From the NCBI GenBank assembly GCA_963737985.1, contig CAVTUU010000009.1, positions 89,640-153,639 on the forward strand: DNA of 64,000 bases. Direction: 5' to 3'. The stretch's first letter is position 1; each line of letters opens with the position of its first letter. Shown here piece by piece: positions 2,834 to 40,924 of the stretch. The stretch is from an uncultured Chloroflexia bacterium (GTDB taxonomy: Bacteria > Chloroflexota > Chloroflexia > Thermomicrobiales > UBA6265). Under the pieces are notes generated by a model. The model saw nothing but the letters and a program-made list of their open reading frames with translations, was not told the DNA's origin and did no database searches. A program made the position numbers and the translations under genes.

Positions 2834-3245
2834 GATACGGGGCTCCGTTTACTTTTCCATTTGGGAATTGAACGCGCTGCCATTGCGGGCCGATGTGCGG
2901 TGATACGATGATGGCGAGCTTCGGGTTATTTCAGTTCAGACGAGGGAAGTTGCTATTCCATGGACGCCAGTGGCGCCGCAACCCCTTGCCCGACGACGGA
3001 CCCAGCGCAACCTGTCACGGTAATCCTCGTCCCGACAATGGAAGCTATGTCAGCAACCACACCGGCGCCGTAACGATTGACCCGCGACACGACCCACTAA
3101 TCCATCCTGTTGTAGCGGCGCCCAGCTGTGCGCCCAGGATCGTCGTCCACCTGGTTGCCATCGGAGACGGCCGCGTTCACCCTGCGGACGCATGCTTCCT
3201 TACGAAAAGACGGATTTGTAGCCTCGGAGAGGCTTTCTCTGGTCA

Positions 3246-3268
3246 GCCCTAGGTTTTCAACCTAGGGC
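3246..3268 (-). terminator. Hairpin immediately downstream of the coxM-like gene
   Basis: Perfect 10-bp stem GCCCTAGGTT / AACCTAGGGC with a 3-nt loop, a few nt past the stop at 3275. No clear U-tract. Confidence 0.45.
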
Positions 3269-3274
3269 TCTCAC

Positions 3275-4144
3275 CTACGCTCGCGCTTTTTCAGCCGCTG
3301 CTTGGATCGCCCGTCGGGTCAGTCCGATCGTCACCGAGCGGCGGTAATCGGCCGAGGCGTGGATGTCGTCGAGGAAGTCGATTCCATCGCCCGCGTGGGC
3401 AGCAGCAGCGTGAATCGATGCTTCGTCGAGCGATGTTCCAATGAGCGCTTGTTCGACACTGCCGGCGCGAACCGCAACATCGCCTGCGCCGGTGATACCG
3501 ATCTTGGCTTGGCTGCACTTCCCGTCGTCACCAAGGGTCAGGATTGCGGCAATTCCGGTCAGGGCATAGCCAGACGCCTGATTGGCGAGTTTTTGGTAGT
3601 TCGAACCAGTTTTAGCTGGCTGTGAAGGAATACGGATCTCGGTGAGGATCTCGTCGGGAGTCAGGGCCGTCGTCAAGAAGCCGACGAAAAAGTCTGCAGC
3701 GGGAATCGTGCGCTCACCGTTTGGACCTTGGGCAACCATTTCCGCTTCAAGCGCCAGAATCGCCGCTGGGTAGTCGGCGGCCGCATCGGCATGAGCCAGT
3801 GCGCCGCCAATTGTTCCACGATTTCTCACCTGGACGTCACCAATGACACTCGCGGTCTCCGCCAATACCGGGCATTGAACGCGAATGGTTGGATCCGTTG
3901 CGATTTGCCTGTGCGTAGTCATCGCACCGATCCGTATCCCCGGTCCGTTTGCGCTTATGCCTTGCAGTGTTTGGATTCGGCCAAGATCGATGAGGTGAGC
4001 GGGCTGGGCGAGGCGAAGCTTCATGATCGGCAAGAGACTATGCCCGCCCGCGATCAACTTGGACTGGTCGCCGAACTCTTGCAGGAGCCCAATGGCTCCT
4101 GCAACGCTTTCTGCCTTGTGGTATTCGAAGGGCGCTGGAAACAC
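3275..4144 (-). CDS. coxM: Molybdenum hydroxylase (CO dehydrogenase / xanthine dehydrogenase family) FAD-binding medium subunit
   Basis: 289 aa. N-terminus MFPAPFEYHKAESVAGAIGLL...KLIAGGHSLLPIMKLRL is typical of CoxM/CutM FAD-binding subunits. Confidence 0.9.
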   Translation of the reverse strand: MFPAPFEYHKAESVAGAIGLLQEFGDQSKLIAGGHSLLPIMKLRLAQPAHLIDLGRIQTLQGISANGPGIRIGAMTTHRQIATDPTIRVQCPVLAETASVIGDVQVRNRGTIGGALAHADAAADYPAAILALEAEMVAQGPNGERTIPAADFFVGFLTTALTPDEILTEIRIPSQPAKTGSNYQKLANQASGYALTGIAAILTLGDDGKCSQAKIGITGAGDVAVRAGSVEQALIGTSLDEASIHAAAAHAGDGIDFLDDIHASADYRRSVTIGLTRRAIQAAAEKARA

Positions 4145-4182
4145 CGTTGGTTCTCCTGTGGCTGGGCGTCAAGCCCTCACGA

Positions 4183-4683
4183 CTATCGAGATTCAAATGG
4201 CTCCGGTTGCGCTCCGGCCGCGATCTTCGCCGCCGCGGATTGCACTGACTTCACGATGTTGTGGTAGCCCGTGCAGCGGCAGATATTTCCTTCAAGCGCG
4301 TGGCGAATTGCAGGTTCGTCTGGATTGCTGTTGTCGCTTAATAGCGCCACAGTCGACAAGACTACGCCTGGAGTGCAATACCCACATTGCAGACCATGTT
4401 CTTCCCAGAATGCTTGTTGCACTGGATGGAGCGTTCCACGCGGAGCAAGACCTTCGATCGTCGTCACGGAAGTGCCGTCAGCTTGCGCTGTCAGGATCGT
4501 GCAGCTTTTCGCTGCCAGTCCGTCGACAAGAACGGTACAGGCGCCGCATTGACTCGTTTCGCAACCGACATGGGTGCCGGTGAGACCGAGCGTATCGCGC
4601 AAAAACTGGACGAGTAACTGACGCGGTTCAACCTCGGCACTTCGCTCGGCGCCGTTAACTGTCACTTTGACAGAGACGTTCAA
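4183..4683 (-). CDS. coxS: Molybdenum hydroxylase (2Fe-2S)-binding small subunit
   Basis: Both [2Fe-2S] cysteine clusters are present ([12 protein letters not shown]; CGYCTPG...CRCTGY). Likely TTG start at 4683 after GAGGGAGA; the raw ORF extends to 4728. Confidence 0.9.
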
Positions 4684-4778
4684 GACTTCGTTCTCCCTCG
4701 TTGAGCGATTCCAATGTGAACGAGCCACGCAACTGCGACCCGAATCACAAGTGCAAGGATCTGGCGGTTGCGTTCAGG

Positions 4779-5219
4779 CTAGGCGTTCCCCGCTCGACTA
4801 TCGAGACAACTGAAGAACTGCCCGACGATCATTTTCGCCGCGGGCTGCATGACGCGCGCTCCAACCCGAGCGAGCGTACCCCTGACATTGGCATCGCCTT
4901 TGTACTTAACGAGCGTTTTGCCGTCCTGTTCAACCAACTCGAGCGTGCCGACACCTGAAACTTGTCCTTGCGGGCCGCTTCCCTCGATCGCCATGGTGTA
5001 ACGCTCGGGCTCCTGTTTATCGGTGATCTTGACACTGCCATTGAATGTGCCACGAATCATCGCGACTCCGATTTTCATTGTCGCGTTGAACTCGTCTTCT
5101 CCGGTTTGTTCGAGTTTTTCACAACCTGGCAGACATTGACGGAGCGTTTCCGGGTCGAGCAGAAAGCGCCAGACCGTTTCGCGCGGTGCGGAGAACGTGT
5201 GCTCCCCAACTAACTCCAT
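4779..5219 (-). CDS. coxG: CoxG-like SRPBCC family protein
   Basis: 146 aa. MELVGEHTFSAPRETVWRFLLDPETLRQCLPGCEKLE matches the CoxG/SRPBCC pattern. GGAGG RBS upstream. Confidence 0.85.
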   Translation of the reverse strand: MELVGEHTFSAPRETVWRFLLDPETLRQCLPGCEKLEQTGEDEFNATMKIGVAMIRGTFNGSVKITDKQEPERYTMAIEGSGPQGQVSGVGTLELVEQDGKTLVKYKGDANVRGTLARVGARVMQPAAKMIVGQFFSCLDSRAGNA

Positions 5220-5301
5220 GTAGACCTCCCTACCGGAGGCGGCAATAAACCGCCGTCCAGACTCAAGATGGACGGCAGTGTATCAAGAATTGAACCGCCG
5301 A

Positions 5302-5784
5302 TTATTTGGTTGCTCTGCGCCAGGTTTCTATGATTCGGTTGTCATGCGCAAATGCGAGGGGCGGAAGATCGTCAGGTGAGAACCACGCGACCTCTGTCAA
5401 ATCGTCCGCCGCGACCGCCTCGCCCGCGGCCGCTGACGCGATATAGACCGCGAGAACAACTGTCTCGCCGGGTGAAGAATAGAGACCGAGGAGATCGCCA
5501 ATCTCGACATCGAGACCGATTTCTTCTTTCGCTTCCCTTCGGGCTGCCTCCTCGACTTGTTCGCCACGCTCGACGAACCCGGCGGGGAAACTCCACTTGC
5601 CGGGCTCTCGCGTCGAAGCACCTCGTTTTCCGAAGAGCAGCTTGCCGTCGCGTTCGATGACGACCGCGACAGCAAGCTTCGGATCGAGATAGGTGACCGT
5701 TCCGCAAACGATGCAAACCGGACGTATCGTTCCTTCGACCGGTTTCATCGCGGTTTCGTTGCCGCATTGCTGGCAATAGATCAC
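5302..5784 (-). CDS. NUDIX hydrolase with N-terminal zinc ribbon
   Basis: Complete Nudix box GFVERGEQVEEAARREAKEEIGL. N-terminal CQQCG...CIVCG. Confidence 0.9.
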   Translation of the reverse strand: MIYCQQCGNETAMKPVEGTIRPVCIVCGTVTYLDPKLAVAVVIERDGKLLFGKRGASTREPGKWSFPAGFVERGEQVEEAARREAKEEIGLDVEIGDLLGLYSSPGETVVLAVYIASAAAGEAVAADDLTEVAWFSPDDLPPLAFAHDNRIIETWRRATK

Positions 5785-5795
5785 AGGCGTTTTGC

Positions 5796-7316
5796 CTATC
5801 GCCGCCGTGCGTTATCAACGAATTTGACGACATCGGACTTGAGTTTGGTCAATGCTTTTGATTCGAGATAGACCATGTGACCAACCTCGTACTCTTCGAC
5901 CTGAATGTTCGCCCGTTGCGACGGATCGAGGTTCATGTGGCTCAGGGTGTACTCGGTCGCGAAGTACGGCGTCGCGAGATCGTAGTATCCAGATGCGACC
6001 AAAAGCTTGAGATATGGATTCTTGGCGAACGCGCTTCTCAGCGATTCGCTCGTATCGGGTTGCCCATCGCTGGCCTTGCCCCAATCCCATTCGATACCGC
6101 GAAGGATGTGGTACTCGGCGTCGTTTTCGTAGTTGAGCTCACGGCGGACGTAATCGTTGAACATCGCCGTAAACGGCGGTCGAATCGCGGCCATGCTCGG
6201 ATCGAAGTCGGGCGTTTCCGAGATATTCCGCTCGTCAATGCCTGTGTAGCGGCTATCTAAGCGGCCCACTGTTCGCCGTTCGGAGCGAAGCAGCTCCTTG
6301 CAGAAGCGGTGGATCTCCACGCGCAAATTGCTGTCTTCTATGTATTGTTCACTGAGACCGATATATCGCGACAATTTGGTGACTGATGCCGCCCGATCCT
6401 TATCGGTGAGCGTGTCGCCTTTCGCCAGCAACGCGTTGTACTCATTGATTGTCCAAGCTTCGACCTCATCCAGGAACTTGTTGAGATTCAGCTTCTGCAG
6501 TTCCTTGGGCAGCCGTTTGTGGTACCAGGCCGTGGCGGCATACGTGGGCGCATAGAGGAGATAGGGCAAATCATTGCCTGGACCAAAGCGCGCAGTCTGC
6601 AAATTGAGAATGCTTGAGACGAGCACAATGCCATTGAAGGCAATTCCGCGCTCGATGAGATGCCCGGAGAGCCCGGCCGCGCGGAATGTGCCGTAGCTCT
6701 CCCCAACCAAATACAGCGCCGAAGACCAGCGTTTGTAGCGAGTCAGATAGAGGCGGATGAACTCGCCGATCGACTCGATATCCTTCTGCACCTCCCGAAA
6801 TTTCTTCGCCAGGTCATCGGACTTCGCTCGGCTGTAGCCGGTGTCGACCGGGTCGATGAAGACGAGATCAGTGGCATCGAGCCACGTGTCATCGTTGTCG
6901 ACCAGCTCAAATGGTGGCGCCGGCATCCACCCTTCGGCCTCCATGACCACACGACGCGGACCCAGCGCTCCTAAATGAAGCCAAACCGACGACGAACCAG
7001 GACCGCCGTTGAACGAGAACATCAATGGCCGTTTCGGGTCACCTTCCGGCGAGTTCAACGTGTACGCCATGAAAAAGAGTTCCGCTTCTGTCTCGCCCTT
7101 TTCGTTCTTGATCGGCATCGTTCCTGTGGTGACGAAATACTTCAGTGTCTTTCCACGGACCTTGACTTCATGCTCGGTGACAACGGGCGGCTTCTCCGGT
7201 TCTTCCACTTTCTTTGGTTCTTCAGGGGTTGCATTGGATGCGGGAGTCGCAGTGGCCGTTGCGTCCGCCGCGAACTGCCGGCCGTCCAATGTCAAGAATC
7301 GATCAAATGCGGTCAT
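5796..7316 (-). CDS. Peptidase S10 (serine carboxypeptidase) family protein
   Basis: FNGGPGSSSVWLHLG and nucleophile motif GESYGTF. Start ATG 7316 is preferred (AAGGGTG upstream); the ORF is open to 7358. Confidence 0.85.
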   Translation of the reverse strand: MTAFDRFLTLDGRQFAADATATATPASNATPEEPKKVEEPEKPPVVTEHEVKVRGKTLKYFVTTGTMPIKNEKGETEAELFFMAYTLNSPEGDPKRPLMFSFNGGPGSSSVWLHLGALGPRRVVMEAEGWMPAPPFELVDNDDTWLDATDLVFIDPVDTGYSRAKSDDLAKKFREVQKDIESIGEFIRLYLTRYKRWSSALYLVGESYGTFRAAGLSGHLIERGIAFNGIVLVSSILNLQTARFGPGNDLPYLLYAPTYAATAWYHKRLPKELQKLNLNKFLDEVEAWTINEYNALLAKGDTLTDKDRAASVTKLSRYIGLSEQYIEDSNLRVEIHRFCKELLRSERRTVGRLDSRYTGIDERNISETPDFDPSMAAIRPPFTAMFNDYVRRELNYENDAEYHILRGIEWDWGKASDGQPDTSESLRSAFAKNPYLKLLVASGYYDLATPYFATEYTLSHMNLDPSQRANIQVEEYEVGHMVYLESKALTKLKSDVVKFVDNARRR

Positions 7317-10796: not shown

Positions 10797-11221
10797 GGCG
10801 CGGTTAGACGGTCGGCCGGAATCACAGCCGTGGCGTCAATTTCGACCAACCATTCCGGACGGGCAAGCGCAGAGACAACGATTCCAGTTGAAACCGGATA
10901 GACGTCCTTTAACCATCGCCCGACTACCTGATAGACCGGCTCGCGATGGCGGATATCGACGAGGTAGATCACGATCTTGACGATGTCTTCAAGCGCGCTG
11001 CCGGACTCGTCGAGCAACTGTTTGATGTTGGCCATTGCCTGCTCGGTTTGGGCGGCGGCGTCACCAACACCGACCGATTCCGCGGTATCGAGGTTTTGTC
11101 CGACTTGGCCCCGCAGGTAAACCGTGTTCCCCGCCACAACTGCTTGGCAAAGGTCGTTGTCGAGTTGTTGATTGGGGTAGGTGTCGCGGGTGTTGAACTT
11201 CCGGATTCTCCGGTGGCTCAT
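10793..11221 (-). CDS. RidA/YjgF family enamine-imine deaminase
   Basis: 142 aa. ...VYLRGQVGQ...AQTEQAMANIKQLLDESGSALEDIVKIVIYL...VEIDATAV. 4-nt overlap with the DUF1028 gene. Confidence 0.9.
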   Translation of the reverse strand: MSHRRIRKFNTRDTYPNQQLDNDLCQAVVAGNTVYLRGQVGQNLDTAESVGVGDAAAQTEQAMANIKQLLDESGSALEDIVKIVIYLVDIRHREPVYQVVGRWLKDVYPVSTGIVVSALARPEWLVEIDATAVIPADRLTAP

Positions 11222-11239
11222 CTGCCTGACCTCTTCATC

Positions 11240-11385
11240 GCCACACTGAGCGTCCCGTCATTCTGCGCGCTCTCGTCATTCTGAACGAAGTGAAGAATCT
11301 CGTCTGCGCTACAGAGCGTTTCCACCAGAGTGAGATCATTCGACTCCACGCTCTGCGCAGCTCAGGATGTCGAATGAACGGGCGC
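11240..11385. repeat. Palindromic intergenic repeat element, copy 1 (GTCATTCTG...GAAGAATCTCG / GAGATCATTCGACTCC...GCTCAGGATG arms)
   Basis: Duplicated left arm CCGTCATTCTGCGCGC / CTCGTCATTCTGAACGAAGTGAAGAATCTCG and an imperfectly complementary right arm. Same architecture as the element at 22185-22366. Confidence 0.6.
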
Positions 11386-12852
11386 CGTCTGTTTACCTGT
11401 GCCTGGCAAAACGCGATCTGATAAGCCAGCCGACTTTCGCACGAATTCGAGGGGTCCCTCCCAGTCGAAGCTGCGATAGACCGCCGCCAGATTCGCATAT
11501 GGCGGCGATTGCGCAAAGAGCTGGAAGGTCAATCGATGTCCGGCATAGTCCGAATTCAGCAAGTCGCGTGCAAAGGCGAGAAGTTTCCGCCGGTCGCTGG
11601 CCACCCAGTCGTCATTGATCGTGTAGAACTTTTCCATCCAGGGTGCGGTTTCCGGAGCTTCGAACGTGGCAACATCGGGCGTGACGCAGATTTGTCCGCC
11701 GCAAAGTTCGCGGGCGATGTGCATCATCGCCGGCAATTGCGATGACGCCAACACTCTTCCGGTGTACAGCAGCGATTGGTTCGGCATTATGAGACCGCCT
11801 GGGCTCGCTTCCGCCTCAGCGATTGCCGCGGTGAGATGCGCATTGATCCCTTCGCGGAAACAGGCGAGTTGGGCCAGCTTCTCTTGCACCGCTTGCTGCT
11901 TTTCGAGTCCGGTCTGCCGGACGTTGAAAAGCGCGGCTCCGATCATCATGTCGGCCAGTTTCAGTACACGCTGGGTGTATGGGAACGCACTATAGCGGTG
12001 CAGCGTTGCCCGGATGTAAGCGGCGGCCCGCGTAAAGCGATAGAAAAGAACATCTTCCCAAGGTATTTCAACGTCGTCGAAGATCACCAGCGTGTCGATC
12101 TCATCAAAGCGATTCGACAGTGGGTAGTCCTCGATCGAACCATGACCGGCGAACCCGGTTCGACAGATGTGCTTGATGCCCGGAGCGCCCATCGAAACGA
12201 TGAACCCGACCGCGAAATCCGAGAGTTCGCTGTCGCCCCAGTTTGCAATTGTGGGTTTGACGAACGCCTGGTTGGCATAAGCGGCCGCTGTCTCGTATTT
12301 TGCCCCGCGCACGACGATGCCGCGATCAGTTTCCCGCACGACATGCAGCAGCATGTCCGGATCTTGATCCTGCGGTCGTTTAGAACGGTCACCTTTTGGA
12401 TCAGTGTTTGCGGAAACGTGGAACGGATCGGCTTGCACCGCCCGTTCGACATGGCGACGGATGTTCTCGGCAAAGCGCGGATCGACTTCGTTCAGCAAGT
12501 CCTGGCCATCATAGAGCGACCACATCTCGCCAACGGTTTCATCGCCAACCCGAGTGACGACGCCACCGACTTCGTTCAGTACGGTGTCGACTGCTCGTCG
12601 TTTTTCATGCCAGTCCTCGCGGCTGCGCGGCAGTTTTGGTCCGACGGCAAACCTCTCTCCAGTCGACGGGTCAGCATACGTCATCACATCGCGTGTTTCG
12701 GCCTCTCGCGCCATGTCGTAGATTCGCGCGCGAATGTCGACGACTGGTTTGAACGCGGGGTGAACGGTGACGTCGGCAACACGCTCACCGTTGATCCAGA
12801 CGTCCCGACCGTCGCGAATTGATTCCCGATATTCTTCGCCCGTTCGGATCAT
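11362..12852 (-). CDS. 4-hydroxyphenylacetate 3-monooxygenase family, oxygenase component (HpaB-like two-component flavin monooxygenase)
   Basis: 496 aa. MIRTGEEYRESIRDGRDVWINGERVADVTVHPAFKPVVDIRARIYDM is typical of the HpaB family. The last codons run into the repeat element. Confidence 0.9.
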   Translation of the reverse strand: MIRTGEEYRESIRDGRDVWINGERVADVTVHPAFKPVVDIRARIYDMAREAETRDVMTYADPSTGERFAVGPKLPRSREDWHEKRRAVDTVLNEVGGVVTRVGDETVGEMWSLYDGQDLLNEVDPRFAENIRRHVERAVQADPFHVSANTDPKGDRSKRPQDQDPDMLLHVVRETDRGIVVRGAKYETAAAYANQAFVKPTIANWGDSELSDFAVGFIVSMGAPGIKHICRTGFAGHGSIEDYPLSNRFDEIDTLVIFDDVEIPWEDVLFYRFTRAAAYIRATLHRYSAFPYTQRVLKLADMMIGAALFNVRQTGLEKQQAVQEKLAQLACFREGINAHLTAAIAEAEASPGGLIMPNQSLLYTGRVLASSQLPAMMHIARELCGGQICVTPDVATFEAPETAPWMEKFYTINDDWVASDRRKLLAFARDLLNSDYAGHRLTFQLFAQSPPYANLAAVYRSFDWEGPLEFVRKSAGLSDRVLPGTGKQTAPVHSTS

Positions 12853-12858
12853 CGGTCC

Positions 12859-13446
12859 CTACTCCAAGTCTTCGCGGGGCGCGGGATCAGCAGCCAAAGC
12901 TCCGAGTTCCGCCGGCAATGGAGCGGGCGCTCCATACCGCCGGCGCGTGTAGAGAAGCGGTACAGCCGTTTCGTAATCGGCGTGCCGGACTCTGGCCGTG
13001 ATGATGACGTGGGTTGCGGCCGTGTAGCTCTCCGCCAGTTCACAATCGAAGTGGGCGACGGCGCCATCGAGCATCGGCGAGCCTGTTTCTCCGTTCGACC
13101 AAGACCAATGATCGAAGTCATAGGCGGCGCCGTGAAGTGGCCGCCCGGCGAATGTGTCGGCGATATCGGCGTGCTCTTCGTTCAACACGCTGATGGCCAA
13201 GACCTCGTTTTCCAGAATTGCGCGGGCGATTGGGCTCCGCTGACTGATACAAACGAGCACCATGGGCGGATCGGCGTCGAGCGAGCAAAACGAACTCACC
13301 GTCAATCCAAACCGGCCTGCAGGACCATCTGTTGTGGCGACAGTGACACCAGAGACAACATGACTCATCGCCTCAACAAATGTCGCGCGCCGGTTCGCTG
13401 TTTCTTCATCAATTGCGGGAATCACTGTGTCACTCGTCAACGTCAT
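12859..13446 (-). CDS. Flavin reductase (HpaC-like, FMN-binding split-barrel)
   Basis: ...FVEAMSHVVSGVTVATTDGPAGRFGLTVSSFCSLDADPPMVLVCI... Lies immediately upstream of the HpaB-like gene. Confidence 0.9.
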   Translation of the reverse strand: MTLTSDTVIPAIDEETANRRATFVEAMSHVVSGVTVATTDGPAGRFGLTVSSFCSLDADPPMVLVCISQRSPIARAILENEVLAISVLNEEHADIADTFAGRPLHGAAYDFDHWSWSNGETGSPMLDGAVAHFDCELAESYTAATHVIITARVRHADYETAVPLLYTRRRYGAPAPLPAELGALAADPAPREDLE

Positions 13447-13592
13447 GAACTCTCACTATTCTCCTGGCAACCAGCAACAGGGAGGATAGAACACCCGGAA
13501 GTCATCTGTAAAACACATTTACTTGGTGCACAAGATCACTGTTTTCGATGGCCAATTCCTTCCCAACGTGTTGTGAAGGTCGCGAGATTTCG

Positions 13593-14432
13593 CTAAATGG
13601 TGATCTCTCCAGCCTCACGCGCTGCCTGAATTGCGGCAAGCTCTCGTTTTCCTTGCTTTTCCAACGCCGCTAGCCAGCCTTTCTTATAGGGTTGCAGGAT
13701 CTTGACGAGATCGGCGGCGATGGCGAGATTGCGGAACCATTTCCGGTCGGCCGGGACAATGCGCCAAGGCGACTCCTTGGTATTGCATTTAGTCAAGGCA
13801 TCTTCGTACGCCTCCCAATATTCGTTCCAGGAACGGCGTTCGATCCAATCCTGCGCGGAGAGCTTCCACGCTTTTTCCACATCCCTCTCTCGTTCCAAAA
13901 GCCGTTCTTTTTGTTCATCTTCACTAATGTGAAGGTAGTACTTGGCCACAATCGTCTTGTTCTCGACCATGAGCTGCTCGAAGGCATTGATTTCCCCGTA
14001 ACGTTTTCGCCAAATTGATGGCGGTGCAAGTGCCTTCACTCGAACGACGAGGACATCTTCGTAATGGGATCGATTGAAAACGGTGAGCATGCCGCGCCCC
14101 GGCGTGTGCGGGTGGATTCGCCACAAGAAATCGTGTGCCAGTTCCTCCTCTGTCGGCGTTTTGAACGGCTGGACTCTGATCCCTGCCGGATTGACATCCT
14201 TGAAGACGTGCCGAATTGTGCCGTCTTTGCCGCTTGTATCGAGACCTTGGAGGATGACAAGTAAGGCGTGGGTTTTCGCGCCGAAAAGCAGTTCTTGCAG
14301 TTCCCCGAACTCAAGGGCGAGCGCCTCGAACTTGGCTGTCGCCGTCTCGCGATCGAGCCCGCCTGTCTCGTCACTTGCGATCTTGCTGAGCCTGACCGAT
14401 TTTCCCGGCGGCACTTGCACGACGTAGCTCAT
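13593..14432 (-). CDS. Polyphosphate kinase 2 (PPK2) family protein
   Basis: LLVILQGLDTSGKDGTIRHVF (Walker A-like) and FNRSHYEDVLVVRV motifs. Confidence 0.9.
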   Translation of the reverse strand: MSYVVQVPPGKSVRLSKIASDETGGLDRETATAKFEALALEFGELQELLFGAKTHALLVILQGLDTSGKDGTIRHVFKDVNPAGIRVQPFKTPTEEELAHDFLWRIHPHTPGRGMLTVFNRSHYEDVLVVRVKALAPPSIWRKRYGEINAFEQLMVENKTIVAKYYLHISEDEQKERLLERERDVEKAWKLSAQDWIERRSWNEYWEAYEDALTKCNTKESPWRIVPADRKWFRNLAIAADLVKILQPYKKGWLAALEKQGKRELAAIQAAREAGEITI

Positions 14433-24918: not shown

Positions 24919-26323
24919 ATGCTGCTCTACCATGAGGATTCCATGAACGAAAACGGCCAACCATCGATCGAATGTTCACGTTGCGGCACAAGCAATCCCG
25001 CTTCCGCGAGCTATTGCATGCATTGCGCTAGTCGCTTGGCAGACAGTATGCCTGCTTCACACACGTACCGTGTTGTCGTAACTGGTGTCGGCGCGATTAG
25101 CTGTCTTGGACCGACCGCGCCCGAAACGTGGACGCGTGTTTTGGCCGGGGAAACAGGCATCAAGCGCGTTCCCGATCTCGATCCCGCCACGAATCCCTGC
25201 CTGCTCCGCGGCGATGTCGACGAATCTCGCGTCACGAATCGGTTTCTTGAAGGGAAAGCGGCGCGAAACACCTCGCGTTTTTCCCGGCTCGCCGTTGAAG
25301 CTGCCGGGGAGGCGCTGATCGACGCCGGCTTGCTCGACGAAAGCTTGCAGCCAAACACAGATCTGAGTCTCGGCGGCGCGTTGCTAGGAACGTGCGTCGG
25401 TGGGACATACGACGATCTTCTGCCCGCGTACGACATCTTTCAAACGAAAGGGCCGGGCAGAGTACCGCCTCACCTGCATGTCATGTTTCCGCACAATCTC
25501 GCCGCGTACACCATTCAGTCGCGGTTTAACCTCGGTGGACCAAGCTCGACCGTCGTCACCGCTTGTGCGACAGGCGCCCAAGCAATTGGCGACGCATTCC
25601 ACGCCGTCAAATATGGAAAGGCGCCGTTGATGGTCGGCGGCGCAGTCGAACTGACCGACCATCCACTGTTCATTGCCGGTTTCGCCGCGATGCGGGCACT
25701 GCCAACCGACAGCAACGACAATCCCGACCTTGCCAGCCGACCATTTGACGCAACGCGGGCGGGATTTGTCCTTGGCGAAGGCGCGGGAATGGTGATCCTC
25801 GAAGAACTCGAACATGCACGGGCACGCGGCGCTCAAATTTACGCTGAGATTCTCGGTTTCGGCACGTCAAACGATGCGTACCACCCCAATCGCACCCCAT
25901 CCTGAAGGAGCTGGTGCGGCCCGGGCGATCTCGGAAGCACTAAGAGACGGCTGCGTTGATCCTTCCCGAGTCGGGCATGTCCATGCCCATGCCGCTTCTA
26001 CCCCCGCAGGTGACCTCGCCGAGGCAGAAGCGATCAGGGTGGTATTCGGAGAGCGAGCAACGGACATACCAGTCACCTCTATCAAGGGCGCACTTGGGCA
26101 CTGCATGGGTGCATCTGGCGCGCTGGAGACCGTCGTCGCCACCTACACGATGGCCCAACAAGTTATTCCGCCCACGCGAAATTATCGCAATCCCGACCCG
26201 GCGATCGGCCTCGACATCGTTCATGGAGAAGCGAGAAAGGCTTCATTCGAGGTCATGACGAAACATTCGTTCGGTCTCGGCGGCCAAAACGCGGTTCTGG
26301 TCTTGGGCAAAGCCCCAGCCTAA
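24919..26323 (+). CDS. Beta-ketoacyl synthase (KAS I/II-type) with N-terminal zinc ribbon; apparent frameshift at a C-run at 25884-25887
   Basis: CSRCGTSNPASASYCMHC (C-x2-C-x11-C-x2-C). Active-site TACATGAQ, HAHAASTPAGD, GALGHCMGASGA. Frame 1 ends ...SNDAYHPNRTPS* while ORF 25814-26323 continues ...PIAPHPEGAGAA.... The start is uncertain (24919 or 24943). Confidence 0.85.
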
Positions 26324-34467: not shown

Positions 34468-34620
34468 GCGAGCAATGCGCGCAATCGTTCTGATCCCGTA
34501 AACTTCCCTTGCATTCGCCGGTGCGTCTGGGACTGCCGGGTCACGATTCAATGCACAATTGGCTGACTCAACTGGCGAATCAAACCAAACGATCACGTGT
34601 TGGGGAAGGGGATTAATTCG

Positions 34621-35861
34621 GTGAAACGGGTGGTTGTGACGGGTGTGGGCGCGATGACCCCACTCGGTATCGGGGCGAAGGCCTACTGGGAAGGTTCGAA
34701 GGCCGGCTGCTCTGGTATCCGTCACATTCAAGGCTTCGACCCTTCTAATCTGCCCGTTACGATTGCTGGTGAGGTTCCCGGTTTCGCGGCGAAAGATTTC
34801 ATGGATCCGAAGGCCGCTCGTCGAATGGATCGCTTCGCCCAATTCGCAGTCGCCTCGGCGCGAGAAGCAATCGAGCAGGCCAAGCTCGAGATTACCGATG
34901 ACAATCGCGAAATGGTCGGCGTCGTCGTCAACACAGGCGGGGGCGGCATCCCAACTATCGAACACGAAGTCGGGACCATGCATGACAAGGGTCCGAGCCG
35001 GCGTCAGCCCCTTCCTGATCCCGATCTTTGCCCCAAACATGGCCAGTTGTCAGGTCTCGATTGCCTTCGGCATTCGCGGACCATCAAGTACATCGGCGGC
35101 GGCCTGCGCATCTGGAATCCAGGCGTTTGTCGACGCCACCCATATCATCCAACGTGGCGAAGCGGACATTGTGATCACCGGTGGAACTGAAGCGGGGATC
35201 ACTCCGGTTGCCATCGCCGGACTGGCGAATATGGGCGCGCTTTCACGGCGAAACGACGATCCCGCGGGCGCAAGCCGGCCGTTTGATAGCGGGCGCGACG
35301 GATTCGTCTTTTCCGAGGGCGGGGCAATCATGGTCCTCGAATCAGAAGAGCACGCCCTTGAGCGGGCGCAAAAATCATCTGCGAGGTCAAGGGCGGCGCT
35401 TATACATCGGACGCGTTTCACATCACAGCTCCCGATCCAAACGGTGAAGGCGCGGCGCTCGCGATGAAGCGCGCGCTCAAGTGGGCGGGCTTAGAACCGA
35501 GCGACGTGCAATACGTCGCCGCGCACGCGACCGCGACCCCGATCGGCGACATCGCCGAAACCGAGGCGATCAAAGGCGCTTTCGGCGATCATGCGCACAA
35601 GATGGCGATGTCGGCCAACAAGTCGATGGTCGGTCATCTGCTGGGCGCGGCCGGAGCGGTCTCGTCGCTCTCCTGCGTGATGGCGATCGCGAAGGGATAG
35701 TGCCGCCAACGATCAACCTGACTGATCCTGATCCGGCCTGCGATCTCGACTACGTGCCAAATGTCGCACGCAAAATCGACATCAACGTCGCTCTCGCCAA
35801 CGGGTTCGGCTTTGGCGGCCAAAACGCCTGTGCGGTCTTCGCGAAGTACAACGGCGCGTAA
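34621..35861 (+). CDS. fabF: 3-oxoacyl-ACP synthase II, reading frame broken three times (near 34998-35002, 35364-35366, 35694-35696)
   Basis: The pieces in three frames join into a full FabF: [15 protein letters not shown]...HDKGPSR|[38 protein letters not shown]...ALER|[29 protein letters not shown]...HATATPIGD...[11 protein letters not shown]...AIAKG|IVPPTINL...[15 protein letters not shown] 34621 follows GAAGGGGA. Confidence 0.9.
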
Positions 35862-35888: not shown

Positions 35889-35912
35889 CGGCACGCCCTA
35901 ACCGGCGTGCCG
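35889..35912 (+). terminator. Hairpin downstream of fabF
   Basis: 9-bp stem CGGCACGCC / GGCGTGCCG with a 6-nt loop, 28 nt after the fabF stop. No U-tract. Confidence 0.5.
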
Positions 35913-35948
35913 GCTCGCTCGTTGTAATGCGCGTGATAGTTGCTCCCG

Positions 35949-36013
35949 TATAATGTGTTTCACCCAAACGGGAGAAAAGCGAATAACGTATCCAGCTGGT
36001 CACATGTGGATAC
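35949..36013 (+). promoter_or_regulatory. Candidate -10 hexamer and operator-like inverted repeat upstream of the sigma/ImmA/HerA operon
   Basis: Perfect TATAAT at 35949-35954; the only TTG-type -35 candidate, TTGTAA at 35922-35927, is 21 nt away, which is too far. Inverted repeat GTATCCA-N12-TGGATAC (35988-36013) encloses palindromes CCAGCTGG and CACATGTG. Confidence 0.3.
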
Positions 36014-36069
36014 GATTGAATGGCATAACGCAGCCACATATCAATCAGCAGCGAGGTCAATCACTGCCG

Positions 36070-36702
36070 ATGACAACTGCTAGAGACGATCGGGCAACTG
36101 GAAAATCGCTCCATGAGCAGCTCTTGCGAGGTGACCCGGATGCCGCAAGCGCCATCTATATTGCCTATCGCGATCGAGTGAGCGCGCACATTCGAGCGCA
36201 GGCACGCGCAAATGGCGAGCATCTGCCAGATGAAGACATGGTCATCGATGCAGCAACCGAGGCGTTTGCCAAGTATTTCGACAAACCGGAAAAGTTCAAT
36301 CCTGACCTGAAATCGCTGCTTGGCTATCTCAACATGTCGGCACTCAGTGACTTCCTCAATCTTGTCGATAAACGAAAACGCAGGCCGCAACTACGTGTCG
36401 GAATTGAAGATGAAGTCTGGAATAAGTATGCAGACGATGACGCTCAGTCTTTTGAAGACGAGGTCATCGACCAAGACGATAGCGAACTTGTGCGGAAATT
36501 GAGAAGCCAGTGCGTAAGAACCGACGAAGACCGCATCATTTACGAACTTCTTCTCGACAAGGTCCGCGAGACCAGCAAGTGCCTGGAAGCGCTTGGATGG
36601 CCCGAGGGCGCGGAGAGCACGGAACGGCTCCGGAATGCGAAGGACCGAATCAAAAAGTGTCTCCAGCGGGCGCACAGCAGGTTCGTCCAGGAGAACCAGT
36701 GA
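36070..36702 (+). CDS. Divergent ECF-like sigma-70 family protein
   Basis: Region-2-like DEDMVIDAATEAFAKYFDKPEKFNPDLKSLLGYLNMSALSDFLNLVDKRKRR. Region-4-like DEDRIIYELLLDKVRETSKCLEALGWPEG..STERLRNAKDRIKKCLQRA. Its stop overlaps the next start (TGATG). Confidence 0.65.
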   Translation: MTTARDDRATGKSLHEQLLRGDPDAASAIYIAYRDRVSAHIRAQARANGEHLPDEDMVIDAATEAFAKYFDKPEKFNPDLKSLLGYLNMSALSDFLNLVDKRKRRPQLRVGIEDEVWNKYADDDAQSFEDEVIDQDDSELVRKLRSQCVRTDEDRIIYELLLDKVRETSKCLEALGWPEGAESTERLRNAKDRIKKCLQRAHSRFVQENQ

Positions 36703-37142
36703 TGGGAATCCCTTTCGACGACGAGATGCAGGCAAAAATGACTCGAATGCTTGCCGCGAAACTCGCCGTATCACCGAAAACCATGTCGTGGGTAATCGAC
36801 CAGTACAAGGAAATCGAGCACGTTGACGACGCTTCAGTTCAACGTATCCTCCAAATCAGCGCCAACGATTTCTATCACTTAGCAATTTGCGGCAGACCAC
36901 GAGAAAATCTCTTCACAGAAGACCTCGAGACCTTCGCCGATCGGTTCAGCATCCCGCAACAACCGCTCGCGCGATTGGTCCGTAGGGTTGAGGCAATCAC
37001 GAGCTTCCGCGAATACACCGACGTGGCTGCCGCTTCATTGCTGGCTGCCGCACGTGATATTGCTGAGGACAGGCCAGAACCTTACGACGTCGAGAAAGAC
37101 GAGACCGGTTCAGAAGAGCCGGCGCCGGACGACGAGCAATGA
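36702..37142 (+). CDS. Small protein with a possible degenerate XRE-like HTH and an acidic tail (positional equivalent of an ImmR/DdrO-type partner)
   Basis: 146 aa. VQRILQISANDFYHLAICGRPRENL...LETFADRFSIPQQPLARLV. C-terminus DRPEPYDVEKDETGSEEPAPDDEQ. ATGA overlap with the next gene. Confidence 0.55.
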   Translation: MGIPFDDEMQAKMTRMLAAKLAVSPKTMSWVIDQYKEIEHVDDASVQRILQISANDFYHLAICGRPRENLFTEDLETFADRFSIPQQPLARLVRRVEAITSFREYTDVAAASLLAAARDIAEDRPEPYDVEKDETGSEEPAPDDEQ

Positions 37143-37847
37143 TTGCCGGTTGGCTCTCCAACGCCGCGGATTACTTCTGGGCGCAGACGGACCCGCCGGC
37201 AACCTATCCCCGCGACCTCACGCTGCCTGCACTGCGCGCGTTTGTTCTCGATGAGCAAGTCATCCTCGGACTGCGGGTCAGTTCAATTCAAAAGTGGTTT
37301 CTCAGCCGTAAGTGCGCGATCGACTTCCCCGAGCAGGATCGACGCCTTCGGGGCTGTCTGACGGCAATCGGAGGCTGCGCGATTGTCTTCATCGACGGCG
37401 CGGATAGCGATGCCGAACGTCGATTTACGTTTGCGCACGAGATTGCCCACCTCTTGCTCGATTACCGCCTCCCGCGAGTGCGGGCGATTTCCTTACTCGG
37501 ACCTTCCATTCTCCAAGTCCTCGACTGTCTGCGGCCGCCAACAGAATCCGAACGTATCCATGCTGCTATAAAGAATTGCTCACTCGGTCTTTATTGCCAT
37601 TTGCTCGATCGGCGGGATCAAACGGGACACGTTGCGTCCGTCGAGAGCCGTGCTGATCTCCTCGCTTGGGAGCTGCTGGCTCCAGACGAAGAACTCGAGC
37701 ATCGGTACGAGAAAATCGATTTCTGCCGCCGAATTGTGCAACGAATTGATTCGCGTGTTCGGCCTGCCAGCTCCCGAGGCCGCGAAATACGCCGATCGCT
37801 GGACTCGCGCCCACTTTGGTCCGCAACCGCTCATCCGTCTCGTCTAG
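37139..37847 (+). CDS. ImmA/IrrE family (COG2856, DUF955/M78-like) zinc metalloprotease; apparent +1 frameshift at AAAA 37712-37715
   Basis: RRFTFAHEIAHLLLDY carries the HExxH motif at 37435-37449. After ...EHRYEK the sensible continuation SISAAELCNELIRVFGLPAPEAAKYADRW...LIRLV* is in the frame of ORF 37632-37847. Confidence 0.8.
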
Positions 37848-37859
37848 CGAGCAAATGCT

Positions 37860-39034
37860 ATGTCCGACTCCGTCGCCAACCGAAGTCCGTCAATTGAGGA
37901 CGCGTTTCTCGCGGCGTTTGGCGAGCCGATCAGCCGGACGTTCGATCTCACCACCTGGCGCGAGGCGGGTCGTCTGGGCGATCTGTATGGCCAACTTCAG
38001 CAGGAAATCGCAAGCGCCCAGGAACAAGTTGCGGCGCCCGCAAGTCGATTCGGGCCGAGGTCTTTCCCAGATTCAAGGAGCTCGTTAGCGAGCTTCCGTG
38101 CGCCGGCCTGTACAAGACCTCCACGCAGGATATCGAATCGGCCCAGCGCGGCCTTCTTTTCAACGGCGCGGTCGAAGCCGCAAACGGCACGGTCGTGGCG
38201 CATGAATCGCTCACTCTGTCGATCACGCAAGTCGGCGTCTGCCTGGTCTCGTACCGCGCCGACCGCGGATCCTGGGTTCATCGCCTCTATCGGCGCGACT
38301 TGCGGGAAACGGTGAGTGACCCTGCATCGCTTGCTCAGGAAATGATCAATCGCAGTCATCGCCACGAAAGCGACGATCAATCGGCCGGTATCCGCATGAG
38401 CGAGCTGTCGCGCCGAAGCTTGCGCTCGTACGCCGAACGCGCAACGCTTGTCGAATTGAGCGAGGCGCCCTGGAAAATGGGCATCGGCCATCCCGCGCCA
38501 TATGAGTTGTTGACCGGTTCCGGCAGCCCCGACGTCATCCTCGCGAGTATCGACATGCTTAAGCGTCTGATTCTCAACTGCAAAACATTCGTCTTCGTTT
38601 CGCCGTCGCTCGCGCAGCGCGCATACCTCATGCTCGGCGATGCATTGAAGCCACTGGAATACGCGGTCATCGGCACGACGACCGATCAACTCATGTCGAT
38701 CGTGAACACCGGACACTACTCAAACGCGATCGCGAAACAACTCCGCGCGTTCAACGAGATCGGGCCAAAACTCGTCTTTGGCTGCTACCGGGCGTCGGAG
38801 ATCGGGCCAGCGCGTATCTTCTATGCCCACGTTGATCACGCGCACGAAGCTGCACAGATCGCGCTGGCCGACAGCCGCCTGCAAGAGCACCGGGGCTTTC
38901 CAGTCTTACTCGATCTCGCGGGCGAAATCTGCCGTACGAGCTTCGGCGCGGGCGATTTTGTCGCCACACTTCGCGACGCATACGCCGGCGCTGGTCAACC
39001 ATATGATTTTCATCAAGAATACGGTTCGAGATAA
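37860..39034 (+). CDS. NurA-like protein (assignment by eye), apparent frameshift near 38036-38044
   Basis: The N-terminal ORF (37860-) and ORF 38195-39034 join as ...EQVAAPAKSIRAEVFPRFKELV...LLFNGAVEAANGTVVAHESLTLSITQVGVCLVSY...FVFVSPSLAQ...IGTTTDQLMSIV...ARIFYAHVDHAHEAAQIAL...RGFPVLLDLAGEICRTSFGAGDF. The block order resembles the NurA domain. It sits directly upstream of a HerA-type ATPase. Confidence 0.5.
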
Positions 39035-39064
39035 TAATTATGTCGATAAGGAGAGGGACGAGTG

Positions 39065-40861
39065 ATGGCGGACGGTGAGCAAGATGCCGTTCTCGATGCG
39101 CCTACCGACGGATTGCGAGACCACATAGCGCGCGCTGGCGGTGAATGGCAAGAGCCTGTCGAATTCAAGGGCTCGGTTGGCCGGACGACGTTCGACGCTC
39201 CAGATAGCGAAGGACAACTCGATCACCGTGCTCCTCCCGCACGGCAACCTGCAGGCTCTCCCTCGCAAGCTCTCGTCCGCATCGTCAGTCGACCGGACGG
39301 ACGGGAATATCTCGGCGTCGTCATCAAAGGTCCATTCGCTGAACCCGATGGTCTCCGCACCGACTCTCATCTCGTGATTACCACGACAATCCACGGTGGC
39401 ATGTTCATGCCGAGCCACCATGGTCGAGTACAGGTGGAGCTACTCGGACAGCGGATTGAAGGTGTTCTCCAACCGCCGCAGTTTCGACCGCTTCCGAACA
39501 GTCCCGTATTTGTCCTCGACGAGTCTGAAACGATCGATGTCTTGCGCGTGCGGGGCGACATCCGCCTCGGTCTCGCGGTCGGACACACGAAGGTTCCGGT
39601 TGCTATTCCTTCAACAAGCAAGTCTGTGCTTCCTCGCCACTCCGCGATCATCGGCACCACTGGAGGAGGAAAATCGACAACTGTCGCCGGGTTCATCTCT
39701 AAGGCGCAGCAAGCCGGTCTCGCCGTCGTGCTTCTTGACGTCGAAGGCGAATACACCTTTCTCGATGAGCCGACCGACGACAAGACTATGATCGCGCGCC
39801 TCGGTCAGATCGGTGGGCGACCACAAGGTGTGACCGATATGACGCTCTATCACCTCGAAGGCCGCGAAACGGCGAATCCGCACCATCCTAATCCGAAGCC
39901 ATTCACTCTCAAGTTTTCGGACCTCTCGCCTTATGCGGTCATTGAGATTCTCGATCTTTCCGACGCGCAACAGGAGCGTTTCCAACTCGCATACGACACA
40001 ACGAAGAAGCTATTAAGAGAACAGAATCTCGTTCCGTCCGTCGACGACTCTGAGATCGATGAGTTTGAAGGGGGATATCCCGGCATGCGGCTCGATCACA
40101 TGATCGACGTCTGTAGTGCTTTTCACGCCGCGCTTCAAAAATCAGACGCGTCCTTCATTTCGGCCGATTTCAAGCGGAAGGGCGCTGAATTGACGCGCGA
40201 GGTCAGCGCGCAAAGAGAGCGAACATCCCATCCAGTGAGCTGGCTGGCCCTGATCGGTCGCTTGCGCCGGCTGCATCGTCTCGGCGCGTTTGACAGCGCC
40301 AATGCCCGGTCGCTCAATTATGGGACGCTGCTCGAAGCGGGCAACGTCGGCGTGATCGATCTTTCCGATACCGAGTCACCTGATCTCAATAACCTCGTCA
40401 TCACGGCCATTCTGCGCGGAATCCAAAAGGAACAGGAGCGGCTCTACGCCGAGGCCGAACGCGGTCACGATGCAATCCCGCGCACCCTTGTCATCATCGA
40501 GGAAGCGCACGAATTTCTCGCGAAAGAGCGGATCGACAAGATGCCTCACCTCTTCGCTCAGGTCGCCAGAATTGCCAAGCGCGGAAGAAAACGCTGGTTG
40601 GGCCTCGTGTTCGTTACGCAACTTCCACAACATCTTCCGAACCAGGTGATCGGACTTGTGAACAATTGGGTGATCCACAAGATCAGCGACACAACCGTGG
40701 TAACCACCTTGAAGCAGTCGGTCAGTGGCATCGATGAAAGCCTTTGGACTCGACTTCCAGGTCTCGCGCCCGGTCAGGCGATCGTCAGTTTCACGCACAT
40801 GCACCGCCCGGTGCTGACCGCGATTGATCCAACACCCGCCAAGTTACGCATGGTTGATTAG
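39065..40861 (+). CDS. herA: HerA/FtsK-superfamily ATPase (DUF87 HerA-like, with HAS-barrel-like N-terminus)
   Basis: ATG 39065 follows AAGGAGAGGG. Walker A RHSAIIGTTGGGKSTT, Walker B TLVIIEEAHEFL, then GLVFVTQLPQHL, NWVIHKISD, PGQAIV. Confidence 0.9.
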   Translation: MADGEQDAVLDAPTDGLRDHIARAGGEWQEPVEFKGSVGRTTFDAPDSEGQLDHRAPPARQPAGSPSQALVRIVSRPDGREYLGVVIKGPFAEPDGLRTDSHLVITTTIHGGMFMPSHHGRVQVELLGQRIEGVLQPPQFRPLPNSPVFVLDESETIDVLRVRGDIRLGLAVGHTKVPVAIPSTSKSVLPRHSAIIGTTGGGKSTTVAGFISKAQQAGLAVVLLDVEGEYTFLDEPTDDKTMIARLGQIGGRPQGVTDMTLYHLEGRETANPHHPNPKPFTLKFSDLSPYAVIEILDLSDAQQERFQLAYDTTKKLLREQNLVPSVDDSEIDEFEGGYPGMRLDHMIDVCSAFHAALQKSDASFISADFKRKGAELTREVSAQRERTSHPVSWLALIGRLRRLHRLGAFDSANARSLNYGTLLEAGNVGVIDLSDTESPDLNNLVITAILRGIQKEQERLYAEAERGHDAIPRTLVIIEEAHEFLAKERIDKMPHLFAQVARIAKRGRKRWLGLVFVTQLPQHLPNQVIGLVNNWVIHKISDTTVVTTLKQSVSGIDESLWTRLPGLAPGQAIVSFTHMHRPVLTAIDPTPAKLRMVD

Positions 40862-40902
40862 CGTCCATTGCGCCTGTTTACGAGATCTTCGTAGGTATTC
40901 TT

Positions 40903-40924
40903 CCGGACGAATTTCTTCGTCCGG
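40903..40924 (+). terminator. Hairpin downstream of herA
   Basis: 9-bp stem CCGGACGAA / TTCGTCCGG with a 4-nt loop, 42 nt after the herA stop. No U-tract. Confidence 0.45.

Follow-up and report, generated by a model that had tools for sequence, protein, structure and literature searches.

What is encoded by five adjoining genes noticed in the DNA of an uncultured Chloroflexia bacterium, and do they belong together at all? The genes, here called g1 to g5, occupy positions 36070-40861 of a 64,000-nt stretch of contig CAVTUU010000009.1 (the window), where the open reading frames (ORFs) all run in one direction. A preliminary description had seen in them a compact operon that begins with a sigma factor, a small putative regulator, and an ImmA/IrrE protease and ends with a NurA-like protein and a HerA ATPase, and had proposed an undescribed system triggered by DNA damage or infection. 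Comparison with loci retrieved from relatives (numbered L001 onwards) shows that the five genes are a real cassette rather than chance neighbors. On balance, we favor the view that the block belongs to a widespread family of self-contained cassettes in which a regulatory switch controls an effector, and which would serve as an inducible system against invader DNA. With the same measured confidence, we regard defense as the best-supported reading and a repair module as its main rival. The five genes are as follows:

36070..36702, + strand: g1, divergent extracytoplasmic function (ECF)-type sigma factor, 210 aa, from Sigma70_r2 matches in its orthologue family
36702..37142, + strand: g2, small orphan regulator, 146 aa, with a helix-turn-helix (HTH)-like core and an acidic tail, from alignment
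37139..37847, + strand: g3, ImmA/IrrE/CapP-type M78 zinc metallopeptidase with a 1-nt indel, from Peptidase_M78 (PF06114)
37860..39034, + strand: g4, predicted NurA-like (RNase H/PIWI-fold) protein with a 1-nt indel at ~38030-38036, from AlphaFold 2 (AF2) modeling and Foldseek
39062..40861, + strand: g5, HerA-type hexameric ATPase/translocase, 599 aa, from DUF87 and HerA_C

The arrangement first reported for the window holds in its details. The g1 stop and g2 start meet in TGATG at 36700-36704, the g2/g3 junction is ATGA at 37139-37142, and gaps of only 12 nt and 30 nt separate g3 from g4 and g4 from g5 (ATG at 39065, just preceded by a GTG at 39062). For g1, a longer ORF begins at 35953, and the orthologues align from 36070. 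Retrieval seeded with HerA yielded 80 genome loci, and in 65 of these g3, g4, and g5 stand in the same order on the same strand, with g1 and g2 upstream. The carriers span the Chloroflexota, Planctomycetota, Actinomycetota, Acidobacteriota, Deinococcota (Calidithermus), Bacillota, Verrucomicrobiota, Bacteroidota, and Armatimonadota; the distribution is patchy and crosses phyla at ~50% HerA identity. Median overlaps are 8 nt for g1-g2 and 4 nt for g2-g3, and the g3-g4 and g4-g5 gaps have medians of 109 nt and 66 nt. As a reverse test, 27 metagenome loci were retrieved independently through close relatives of g3, used as the seed because the g1 alignment was too divergent for the scan. Wherever the contig extends far enough, each of them has g1-g2 and/or g4-g5; the one exception is L101. 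There, an IS5-family transposase (5744-6549) sits right after g3 in place of g4-g5. In a small number of loci (L020, L022, L046, and L047) the switch genes are missing beside g4-g5, and others have HerA alone. This co-conservation sets aside the concern that the five genes might occur together in no other genome. Cultured carriers include Calidithermus chliarophilus DSM 9957, Actinomadura scrupuli KCTC 19488, Thermalbibacter longus CFH 74404, and Jatrophihabitans lederbergiae DSM 44399.

A second concern was that the frameshifts in g3 and g4 might be real and the locus decayed. We mapped frame changes against the intact relative L001, a Thermomicrobiales metagenome-assembled genome with 87% HerA identity. 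Exactly one change was located in g3 (near 37708-37715, in the A-run 37711-37714) and exactly one in g4 (about 38030-38036, at GCGCCCGC). The neighboring fabF gene (34597-35861) has three, which spread it over four frames, and one more lies in another ketoacyl synthase gene (25069-26311). Each of the six sites is a homopolymer run (A4, C3, C4/C5, A5, G3, and C4). Since housekeeping fabF is broken three times in the same manner, the breaks point to an indel-prone assembly rather than decay of the locus, and we take those in g3 and g4 to be assembly errors. At an apparent rate of about one coding-sequence indel per kb in this assembly, other seeming pseudogenes of the window should be viewed cautiously.

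The sigma factor assignment of g1 is carried by its family. The window protein by itself has no Pfam match; 19 of 30 aligned orthologues match Sigma70_r2 (PF04542; best 4.4e-10), and when the family profile was compared with the PDB all top matches were ECF sigmas (2q1z at 1.5e-4, 4nqw, and 1or7). ECF region 2 is therefore recognizable in the g1 family, not in the window protein alone. The g1 of L018 aligns over all 165 positions of TIGR02937 (9e-7), scoring 28.6 bits against a cut-off of 42.9. Window g1 is only 30% identical to that of L001 (g1 and g2 at 5004-6082 there), compared with 82% for the flanking fabD and 87% for HerA, and the g2 proteins share 46% identity. Nonsynonymous divergence (dN) likewise shows fast evolution of g1 (0.74) and g2 (0.51) versus slow evolution of HerA (0.09). 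This divergence from L001 could reflect rapid evolution or replacement of the regulatory pair. Guanine-plus-cytosine content falls to 0.51-0.55 across 36000-36999.

The two genes that follow were read as a substrate-protease pair, and the protease is the firmer of the two. g3 scores 30 bits on Peptidase_M78, where the cut-off is 22, matches the PADLOC capP model at 3.5e-8, and has IrrE and CapP as its best PDB matches. Across the family, A99-H-E-x-x-H104 and E169 are invariant and D173..ELLAP nearly so; in the window, HEIAH and VESRADLLAWELLAP both lie upstream of the frameshift. The protein is ~240 aa long with only ~50 residues after ELLAP, and the C-terminal GAF domain of CapP and IrrE therefore seems absent. 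For g2, the acidic tail described earlier is confirmed, whereas the idea of a degenerate XRE-like HTH remains weak: no Pfam (including HTH_3 and HTH_31), NCBIfam, or PADLOC capH profile matches the protein. The alignment reveals a conserved HTH-like core (LA..LGC....L.RLALC.RPR), after which come a linker that varies, the L.AAR(D) motif, which is nearly invariant, and the tail. Weak matches were obtained to the TniQ N-terminal HTH (E ~0.02) and to PADLOC PDC-M69A (0.002), and relatives of g2 have no Pfam domain and are all named ‘hypothetical’. We consider g2 to be probably a cytoplasmic partner protein, either an anti-sigma factor or a repressor, and by analogy with CapH probably the substrate of g3.

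Likeness of g4 to NurA emerged at the level of predicted structure. No match to the g4 sequence was found in Pfam, PDB sequences, PADLOC, or NCBIfam; 0 of 32 orthologues match NurA (PF09376) at E ≤ 1, and the family profile detects no NurA chain among PDB sequences at E ≤ 10. The family comprises at least 1,618 homologues at 90% clustering (584 representatives at 50%), all labeled ‘hypothetical’ and none with a Pfam domain. With a 40-sequence alignment, AF2 gave a g4 model with a disordered core, a predicted local distance difference test (pLDDT) score of 68, and weak NurA matches (E 0.03). With 110 sequences, the model of a homologue 73% identical to window g4 reached a pLDDT of 87.4 and a predicted template modeling (pTM) score of 0.84. 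Foldseek ranks 1-10 for this model were all NurA (E 1e-6 to 1e-4, probability 1.0, template modeling score 0.34-0.55), led by 2ygk at 1.2e-6 and including the T. kodakarensis and P. furiosus proteins; Argonaute PIWI domains and endonuclease V came next. On this model, g4 is NurA-like in fold, as had been proposed, and its sequence family is new.

The catalytic residues of P. furiosus NurA are Asp51 (strand 1), Glu105, Asp126 (strand 4), and His411, and mutation of Asp51 abolishes activity. On the secondary structure of the g4 model, the residues of a putative site fall as follows: the first long strand carries Asp109, within a DG[TS] motif; the long helix after it carries Glu193; the next strand has His209 at its end; and His325 and Asp339 lie close to the C-terminus. 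Equivalence with the P. furiosus residues would follow from strand position and motif, not superposition. The DG[TS] motif occupies the first long strand in 60 of 71 g4 proteins, and D-E-H-H-D is intact in 55 of 72, with a methylase at 26 of those loci. Where the strand-1 Asp is absent, 0 of 11 loci carry a methylase (hypergeometric p ~0.003, not corrected for phylogeny), and an independent set of loci agrees.

The HerA assignment of g5 stands, with DUF87 (PF01935) matched at 5.5e-20 (72.8 bits versus a cut-off of 23.2), HerA_C also matched, and both Walker motifs present (A, GTTGGGKST; B, LVIIEEAHEF). Its nearest solved relatives are the archaeal HerA structures 4d2i (1.9e-19) and 9x1l (1.1e-15), from S. 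solfataricus and T. kodakarensis. Scores fall below all NCBIfam HerA equivalog cut-offs, including those for HerA_Thermprot (90.8 vs 800 bits) and HerA_antiphage (73.8 vs 800 bits), by which sequence measure g5 belongs to a separate HerA clade.

Spacers between g3 and g4 share a bipartite, orientation-specific motif, TGTCGAAC(TT)-N15/16-GGGAA(T). We scanned for GTCGAAC with at most one mismatch followed by GGAA 13-17 nt later. The motif was found upstream of g4 in 28 of 71 loci (reverse strand, 0; shuffles, 0.7) and inside g1, at +309 to +348 nt, in 25 of 47 (reverse strand, 0; shuffles, 0.1). The g1-internal copies always have 15-nt spacing, fall within the segment that links sigma regions 2 and 4, and impose the codons V-E-L...G-K/N. 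A strict form of the pattern gives 71 matches in 1.1 Mb against ~5 expected by our own arithmetic, and the pattern recurs in the independent metagenome loci; in L101, the g4-promoter motif (5675) persists before the insertion sequence. Further copies precede herA (L055 and L080), a gene of unknown function (L070), cas3 (L019 at 9828 and L030 at 9850), and cas4-cas1 (L078 at 10009). Copies on the opposite strand point toward divergent cas4-cas1 (L068, 5024(-); L077, 3366(-)) and toward DUF2130 plus cas4-cas1 (L038, 4702(-)). Because the motif is non-palindromic, has two boxes, and keeps a fixed orientation, it fits a sigma-dependent promoter better than an operator, which in turn supports g1 as a working sigma factor. 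Its position near cas genes suggests that the cassette sigma controls CRISPR-Cas in those genomes. Enrichment of GGAAC upstream of g1 itself is modest (16 loci vs 8.8 expected). Some 50 nt upstream of g1, the ktedonobacterial loci L023, L031, L033, L036, and L042 have in common GGGAACAT(A/G)GT, in some cases inside AACAT...ATGTT dyads; the sequence may be an operator or promoter specific to the lineage, or a mark of mere relatedness. Two sites in the window resemble the motif:

36397..36423, + strand: degenerate copy inside g1, GTCGGAA-N15-GGAAT, at the homologous position (+327 nt), with two mismatches and by itself not significant
38450..38475, + strand: low-confidence match inside g4, GTCGAAT-N15-GGAA, with one mismatch, a chance expectation estimated at ~0.08 in the 5.2-kb block, and no conservation in L001

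Defense-related genes adjoin the cassette in many relatives. A type II-like DNA methyltransferase of PF01555 directly adjoins it, before g1 or after g5, in 28 of the 80 genome loci, and type I cas genes (cas3, cas8, cas7, cas6, cas4-cas1, and cas2) flank the cassette in 22; one or the other is present at 43 loci and both at only seven. The methyltransferase linkage suggests marking of self DNA, and the CRISPR-Cas linkage suggests cooperation with adaptive immunity. The interval from the herA stop codon to the start of cas4-cas1 is 30 nt in three of the loci L021, L029, L048, and L066 and 32 nt in the remaining one. In Ktedonobacteraceae, CRISPR arrays directly follow cassette-cas4-cas1 in L023 (10241-10504) and L036 (12250-15700), the latter with at least 47 copies of the 37-nt repeat GGCTAAATGGCCTGGGGAATCCGTGAGGAATTGAAAC. 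On the viral contig L087, from IMG/VR, the flanking genes (1685-5841 and 11030-14152) place the cassette between type I restriction-modification genes hsdM/hsdR, a PF01555 methylase, and a large serine recombinase with DUF2924, which looks like a defense island at the border of a prophage or other element. Downstream of the cassette in L081 (13217-19637), on a 1.86-Mb contig, come an RNase_H_2 protein, a UvrD-PD-(D/E)XK/Cas4-like helicase-nuclease, and a 1,011-aa N6_N4 methylase; a second methylase is located upstream.

In the mechanism that we propose, g1 would act as a dedicated sigma factor held in check within a switch formed with the small cytoplasmic partner g2 and the zinc peptidase g3. 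The sigma factor would read the cassette-specific promoter TGTCGAAC-N15/16-GGGAAT. Copies before g4-g5, as in most family members, would direct effector expression; the copy inside g1 would drive transcription of g2-g3 and hence feedback, and those before cas3 or cas4-cas1 would bring CRISPR-Cas into the sigma regulon in some genomes. As effector, the NurA-fold g4 and a HerA hexamer of g5 would thread and shred DNA from free ends, while the in-operon methyltransferase of about a third of loci would mark self DNA. The trigger, cleavage of g2, a g4-g5 complex, degradation of DNA, and the defensive role itself are all proposed by analogy with characterized systems. A bolder statement, which we offer tentatively and hold less firmly than the defense reading as such, is that the family represents a new inducible class of immunity, with a peptidase-released sigma, a private promoter, a HerA/NurA-like shredder, CRISPR-Cas recruitment in some genomes, and a self-marking methyltransferase.

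As the preliminary description had suspected, no described system of this architecture was found in the sources searched. In PADLOC v2.0.0, only HerA, capP/RmrA, and MTase_II models match, with none for g1, g2, or g4 apart from the weak PDC-M69A hit; NCBIfam (June 2026) has no model for g1-g4, Pfam contains no system of this architecture, and a full-text literature search returned no paper combining these parts. The cassette thus appears to be undescribed, and its pieces have precedents. Lau et al. reported a trio of sigma, HTH, and M78-peptidase genes beside 24 anti-phage systems that signal by means of cyclic oligonucleotides (CBASS), which qualifies the novelty of the cassette.

Our view of the switch draws on analogy with CapH/CapP, with the sigma gene beside those 24 CBASS capH/capP pairs, and with the DdvS/DdvA island. 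In CapH/CapP, single-stranded DNA (ssDNA) stimulates cleavage of CapH at F82|R83, for which the Arg is required, and the C-terminal GAF domain of CapP/IrrE forms the ssDNA groove. The cassette resembles this pair and its DdrO/IrrE and ImmR/ImmA counterparts in having an M78 peptidase and a small regulator beside an immune-type operon, a sigma-70-family companion gene, and a g3 that matches CapP and IrrE. It differs in having regulatory genes that run in the direction of the cargo and are translationally coupled to it, whereas CapH/CapP are divergent; in the short g3 apparently devoid of a GAF domain; in a g2 that is not recognizably XRE and has an acidic tail instead of a two-helix dimerization domain; and in its NurA-like plus HerA cargo. 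In Myxococcus xanthus, the ECF sigma/anti-sigma pair DdvS/DdvA controls a CBASS-CRISPR island, so that there too a dedicated ECF sigma drives defense genes including CRISPR-Cas. Its anti-sigma is, however, a transmembrane protein, unlike the cytoplasmic and peptidase-paired partner in the cassette, and promoter motif and cargo also differ.

Our view of the effector draws on analogy with the HerA-NurA machines of S. solfataricus, P. furiosus, T. kodakarensis, and D. radiodurans. As in these, a NurA-fold gene lies directly upstream of the HerA gene, g5 is closest in sequence to 4d2i and 9x1l, and the g4 model matches NurA structures best. In contrast, g4 has no detectable NurA sequence similarity, its putative site reads D-E-H-(H)-D instead of D-E-D-H, and the cassette lacks mre11/rad50 linkage; its associations are instead with a switch of sigma, regulator, and peptidase, with a promoter of its own, and with methylases and cas genes. 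SIR2-HerA and DUF4297-HerA similarly pair a HerA hexamer with an effector enzyme, and PADLOC HerA models match g5 at 1e-26; the partner in the cassette is NurA-fold instead, g5 falls far short of the HerA_antiphage cut-off (74 vs 800 bits), and a three-gene regulatory switch is added. The tdtA operon of the Thermus integrative and conjugative element (ICE) ICEth1, MADS, and TdpAB/DndFGH all combine a HerA/FtsK-type ATPase, a nuclease, and a DNA-modification gene, which in ICEth1 include NurA and a PF01555 methylase. ICEth1, described as a DNA-donation machine, lacks the sigma, HTH, and peptidase genes, and Tdp and Dnd involve phosphorothioation; no other component of MADS, Tdp, Dnd, or ICEth1 matches g1-g4. 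We rejected MADS as an identification despite a mad8 match to g5 (4e-21), since MADS is a 22-kb, eight-gene operon with kinase and specificity subunits. Descriptions of Dnd and ‘HerA-capture’ systems likewise do not fit. Finally, the archaeal nurA-csm6-herA cluster shares a NurA/HerA pair beside CRISPR arrays and differs in its canonical Pfam NurA, its Csm6 partner, and the lack of a sigma/peptidase switch.

Within this family, the window copy is a derived variant. Its g4 has the signature N-E-I-H-D, with Asn at the Asp position (VEAANGT) and Ile at the His209 position; because two putative catalytic positions are substituted, the predicted nuclease is probably impaired. Other Thermomicrobiales g4 proteins read N-E-H-H-D, R-E-S-H-D, or D-E-R-H-D. 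The Thermomicrobiales clade of the window has almost no g3-g4 spacer and no g4 promoter, and it keeps a recognizable g1-internal motif; g2-g5 of the window are probably co-transcribed from promoters upstream of g4. Methylase and cas homologues such as adjoin the cassettes of relatives are absent from the window. Against L001, the ratio of nonsynonymous to synonymous divergence (dN/dS) is ~0.18 for g4 and ~0.04 for g5, rough values given that dS is saturated, and the window copy is probably under purifying selection despite its presumably impaired nuclease. On the bolder reading above, lineages such as that of the window would keep a nuclease-dead version for another purpose.

Several observations weigh against an anti-invader role, which for the family as a whole we infer from gene content and analogy. 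The block in the window lacks features of the complete versions, including the putative strand-1 Asp and the His of g4, and its 64 kb contain no defense genes, integrase, tRNA, or CRISPR array. No dimerization domain is detectable in g2 and its HTH is putative, g3 seems too short for the GAF domain that binds ssDNA in CapP/IrrE, and the motif might, in principle, serve to bind a regulator instead of acting as a promoter. No record among 72,556 plasmids covers at least 80% of HerA, and 2.9 million viral contigs (IMG/VR) gave only three close relatives. fabD-fabF adjoins the cassette in six Thermomicrobiales loci (L001, L002, L004, L005, L054, and L074). This synteny suggests vertical inheritance: the block looks inherited in its lineage rather than freshly inserted, contrary to the earlier impression of an inserted accessory module. 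HerA evolves as slowly as fabD, and g5 is closest to archaeal HerA proteins studied in DNA-end processing. Synteny with housekeeping genes, the low dN of HerA, its proximity to the HerA of an archaeal HerA-NurA complex, and a window free of methylase and cas neighbors would also suit a DNA-damage-inducible repair module, in which an IrrE-like switch turns on HerA-NurA end processing for double-strand-break repair without any role in immunity; IrrE/DdrO-type logic governs repair genes in Deinococcus. We nevertheless consider repair unlikely, if the most serious of the alternatives. Methyltransferase or cas genes accompany more than half of the 80 loci (43), the promoter motif of the cassette precedes cas genes, the distribution is patchy across phyla at ~50% HerA identity, and g1 and g2 diverge fast. 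Repeated loss of catalytic residues would not be tolerated in a repair nuclease, and recent work doubts a resection role for HerA-NurA, among it a structural study from 2026 in which a defensive role is argued for the T. kodakarensis complex.

The cas linkage admits a narrower interpretation, in which the sigma switch induces cas genes and HerA/NurA-like fragments feed Cas4-Cas1 acquisition, without stand-alone defense. The short distances from herA to cas4-cas1 in L021, L029, L048, and L066, the arrays in L023 and L036, the motif before cas3 and cas4-cas1, and the adaptation role proposed for the archaeal nurA-csm6-herA cluster beside CRISPR arrays are consistent with it. We judge it improbable, as 58 of 80 loci, that of the window included, have no cas gene in the retrieved flanks, and the methylase association is independent of cas. 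Less probable by far is a module for transfer or maintenance of a mobile element. The NurA-TdtA operon of ICEth1 comprises a restriction enzyme, NurA, a HerA/FtsK-type ATPase, and a PF01555 methylase, L087 adjoins a serine recombinase, and ImmA/ImmR pairs govern ICE induction; set against this, the window copy has no integrase (as already noted in the preliminary description), att repeats, tRNA, or conjugation genes nearby, plasmid relatives are lacking, and the chromosomal position is stable in Thermomicrobiales. The plasmid search also led us to reject a plasmid origin, and a phage origin is unlikely, with three IMG/VR loci of which L087, the sole one whose flanks were examined, has a defense-island context. 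There is similarly very little to recommend the window copy as a decaying, non-functional remnant. Its two frameshifts, two substituted catalytic positions, and lost g4 promoter spacer could be read that way, but all six frameshifts (fabF has three) are indels in homopolymers, of the kind that sequencing error typically produces, the dN/dS values are low for g4 and g5 even allowing for saturated dS, and relatives L002-L004 carry the same substitutions in intact reading frames.

The cassette bears on a debated question, namely whether HerA-NurA acts in break repair or in the destruction of invader DNA. It hard-wires a predicted NurA-fold/HerA pair to a CapP-like stress switch, methylases, and CRISPR-Cas, the kind of context expected for immunity. 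On the bolder reading, it would offer the first direct genomic and experimentally tractable case of HerA-NurA-type machines working in immunity, possibly in spacer supply, rather than in recombinational repair, and the cultured carriers make the question directly testable. The combination of sigma, partner, peptidase, and a promoter with a copy inside the sigma gene could explain how costly DNA-degrading effectors and cas genes are silenced until needed. Two orphan families, g4 and g2, gain a working annotation.

The surroundings of the block are as first described, with fabF (and fabD) upstream and MR_MLE enolase-superfamily, DinB_2, cupin, and SDR genes downstream; no tRNAs or Rfam families were found in the window. 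A generic scan of the block for sigma-70 promoters and intrinsic terminators performed no better than on shuffled sequences. The bracketing hairpins that had been reported are real, folding far better than shuffles, and mark the block boundaries; neither has a U-tract. The boundary features and the repeat in the g1 leader are:

35889..35912, + strand: upstream hairpin directly after the fabF stop codon, perfect 9-bp stem, -19.8 kcal/mol, z -4.1 vs shuffles
40903..40924, strand not assigned: downstream hairpin after the g5 stop codon, 9-bp stem, z -3.4 (+ strand) and -4.3 (- strand)
35987..36014, strand not assigned: inverted repeat CGTATCCA-N12-TGGATACG in the g1 leader, 8-nt perfect arms, a candidate operator

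A second inverted repeat in the g1 leader (35940-35977) has the arms TTGCTCCCGT/ACGGGAGAAA with TATAAT at 35950-35955 between them, and the two leader repeats may act as an operator or attenuator.

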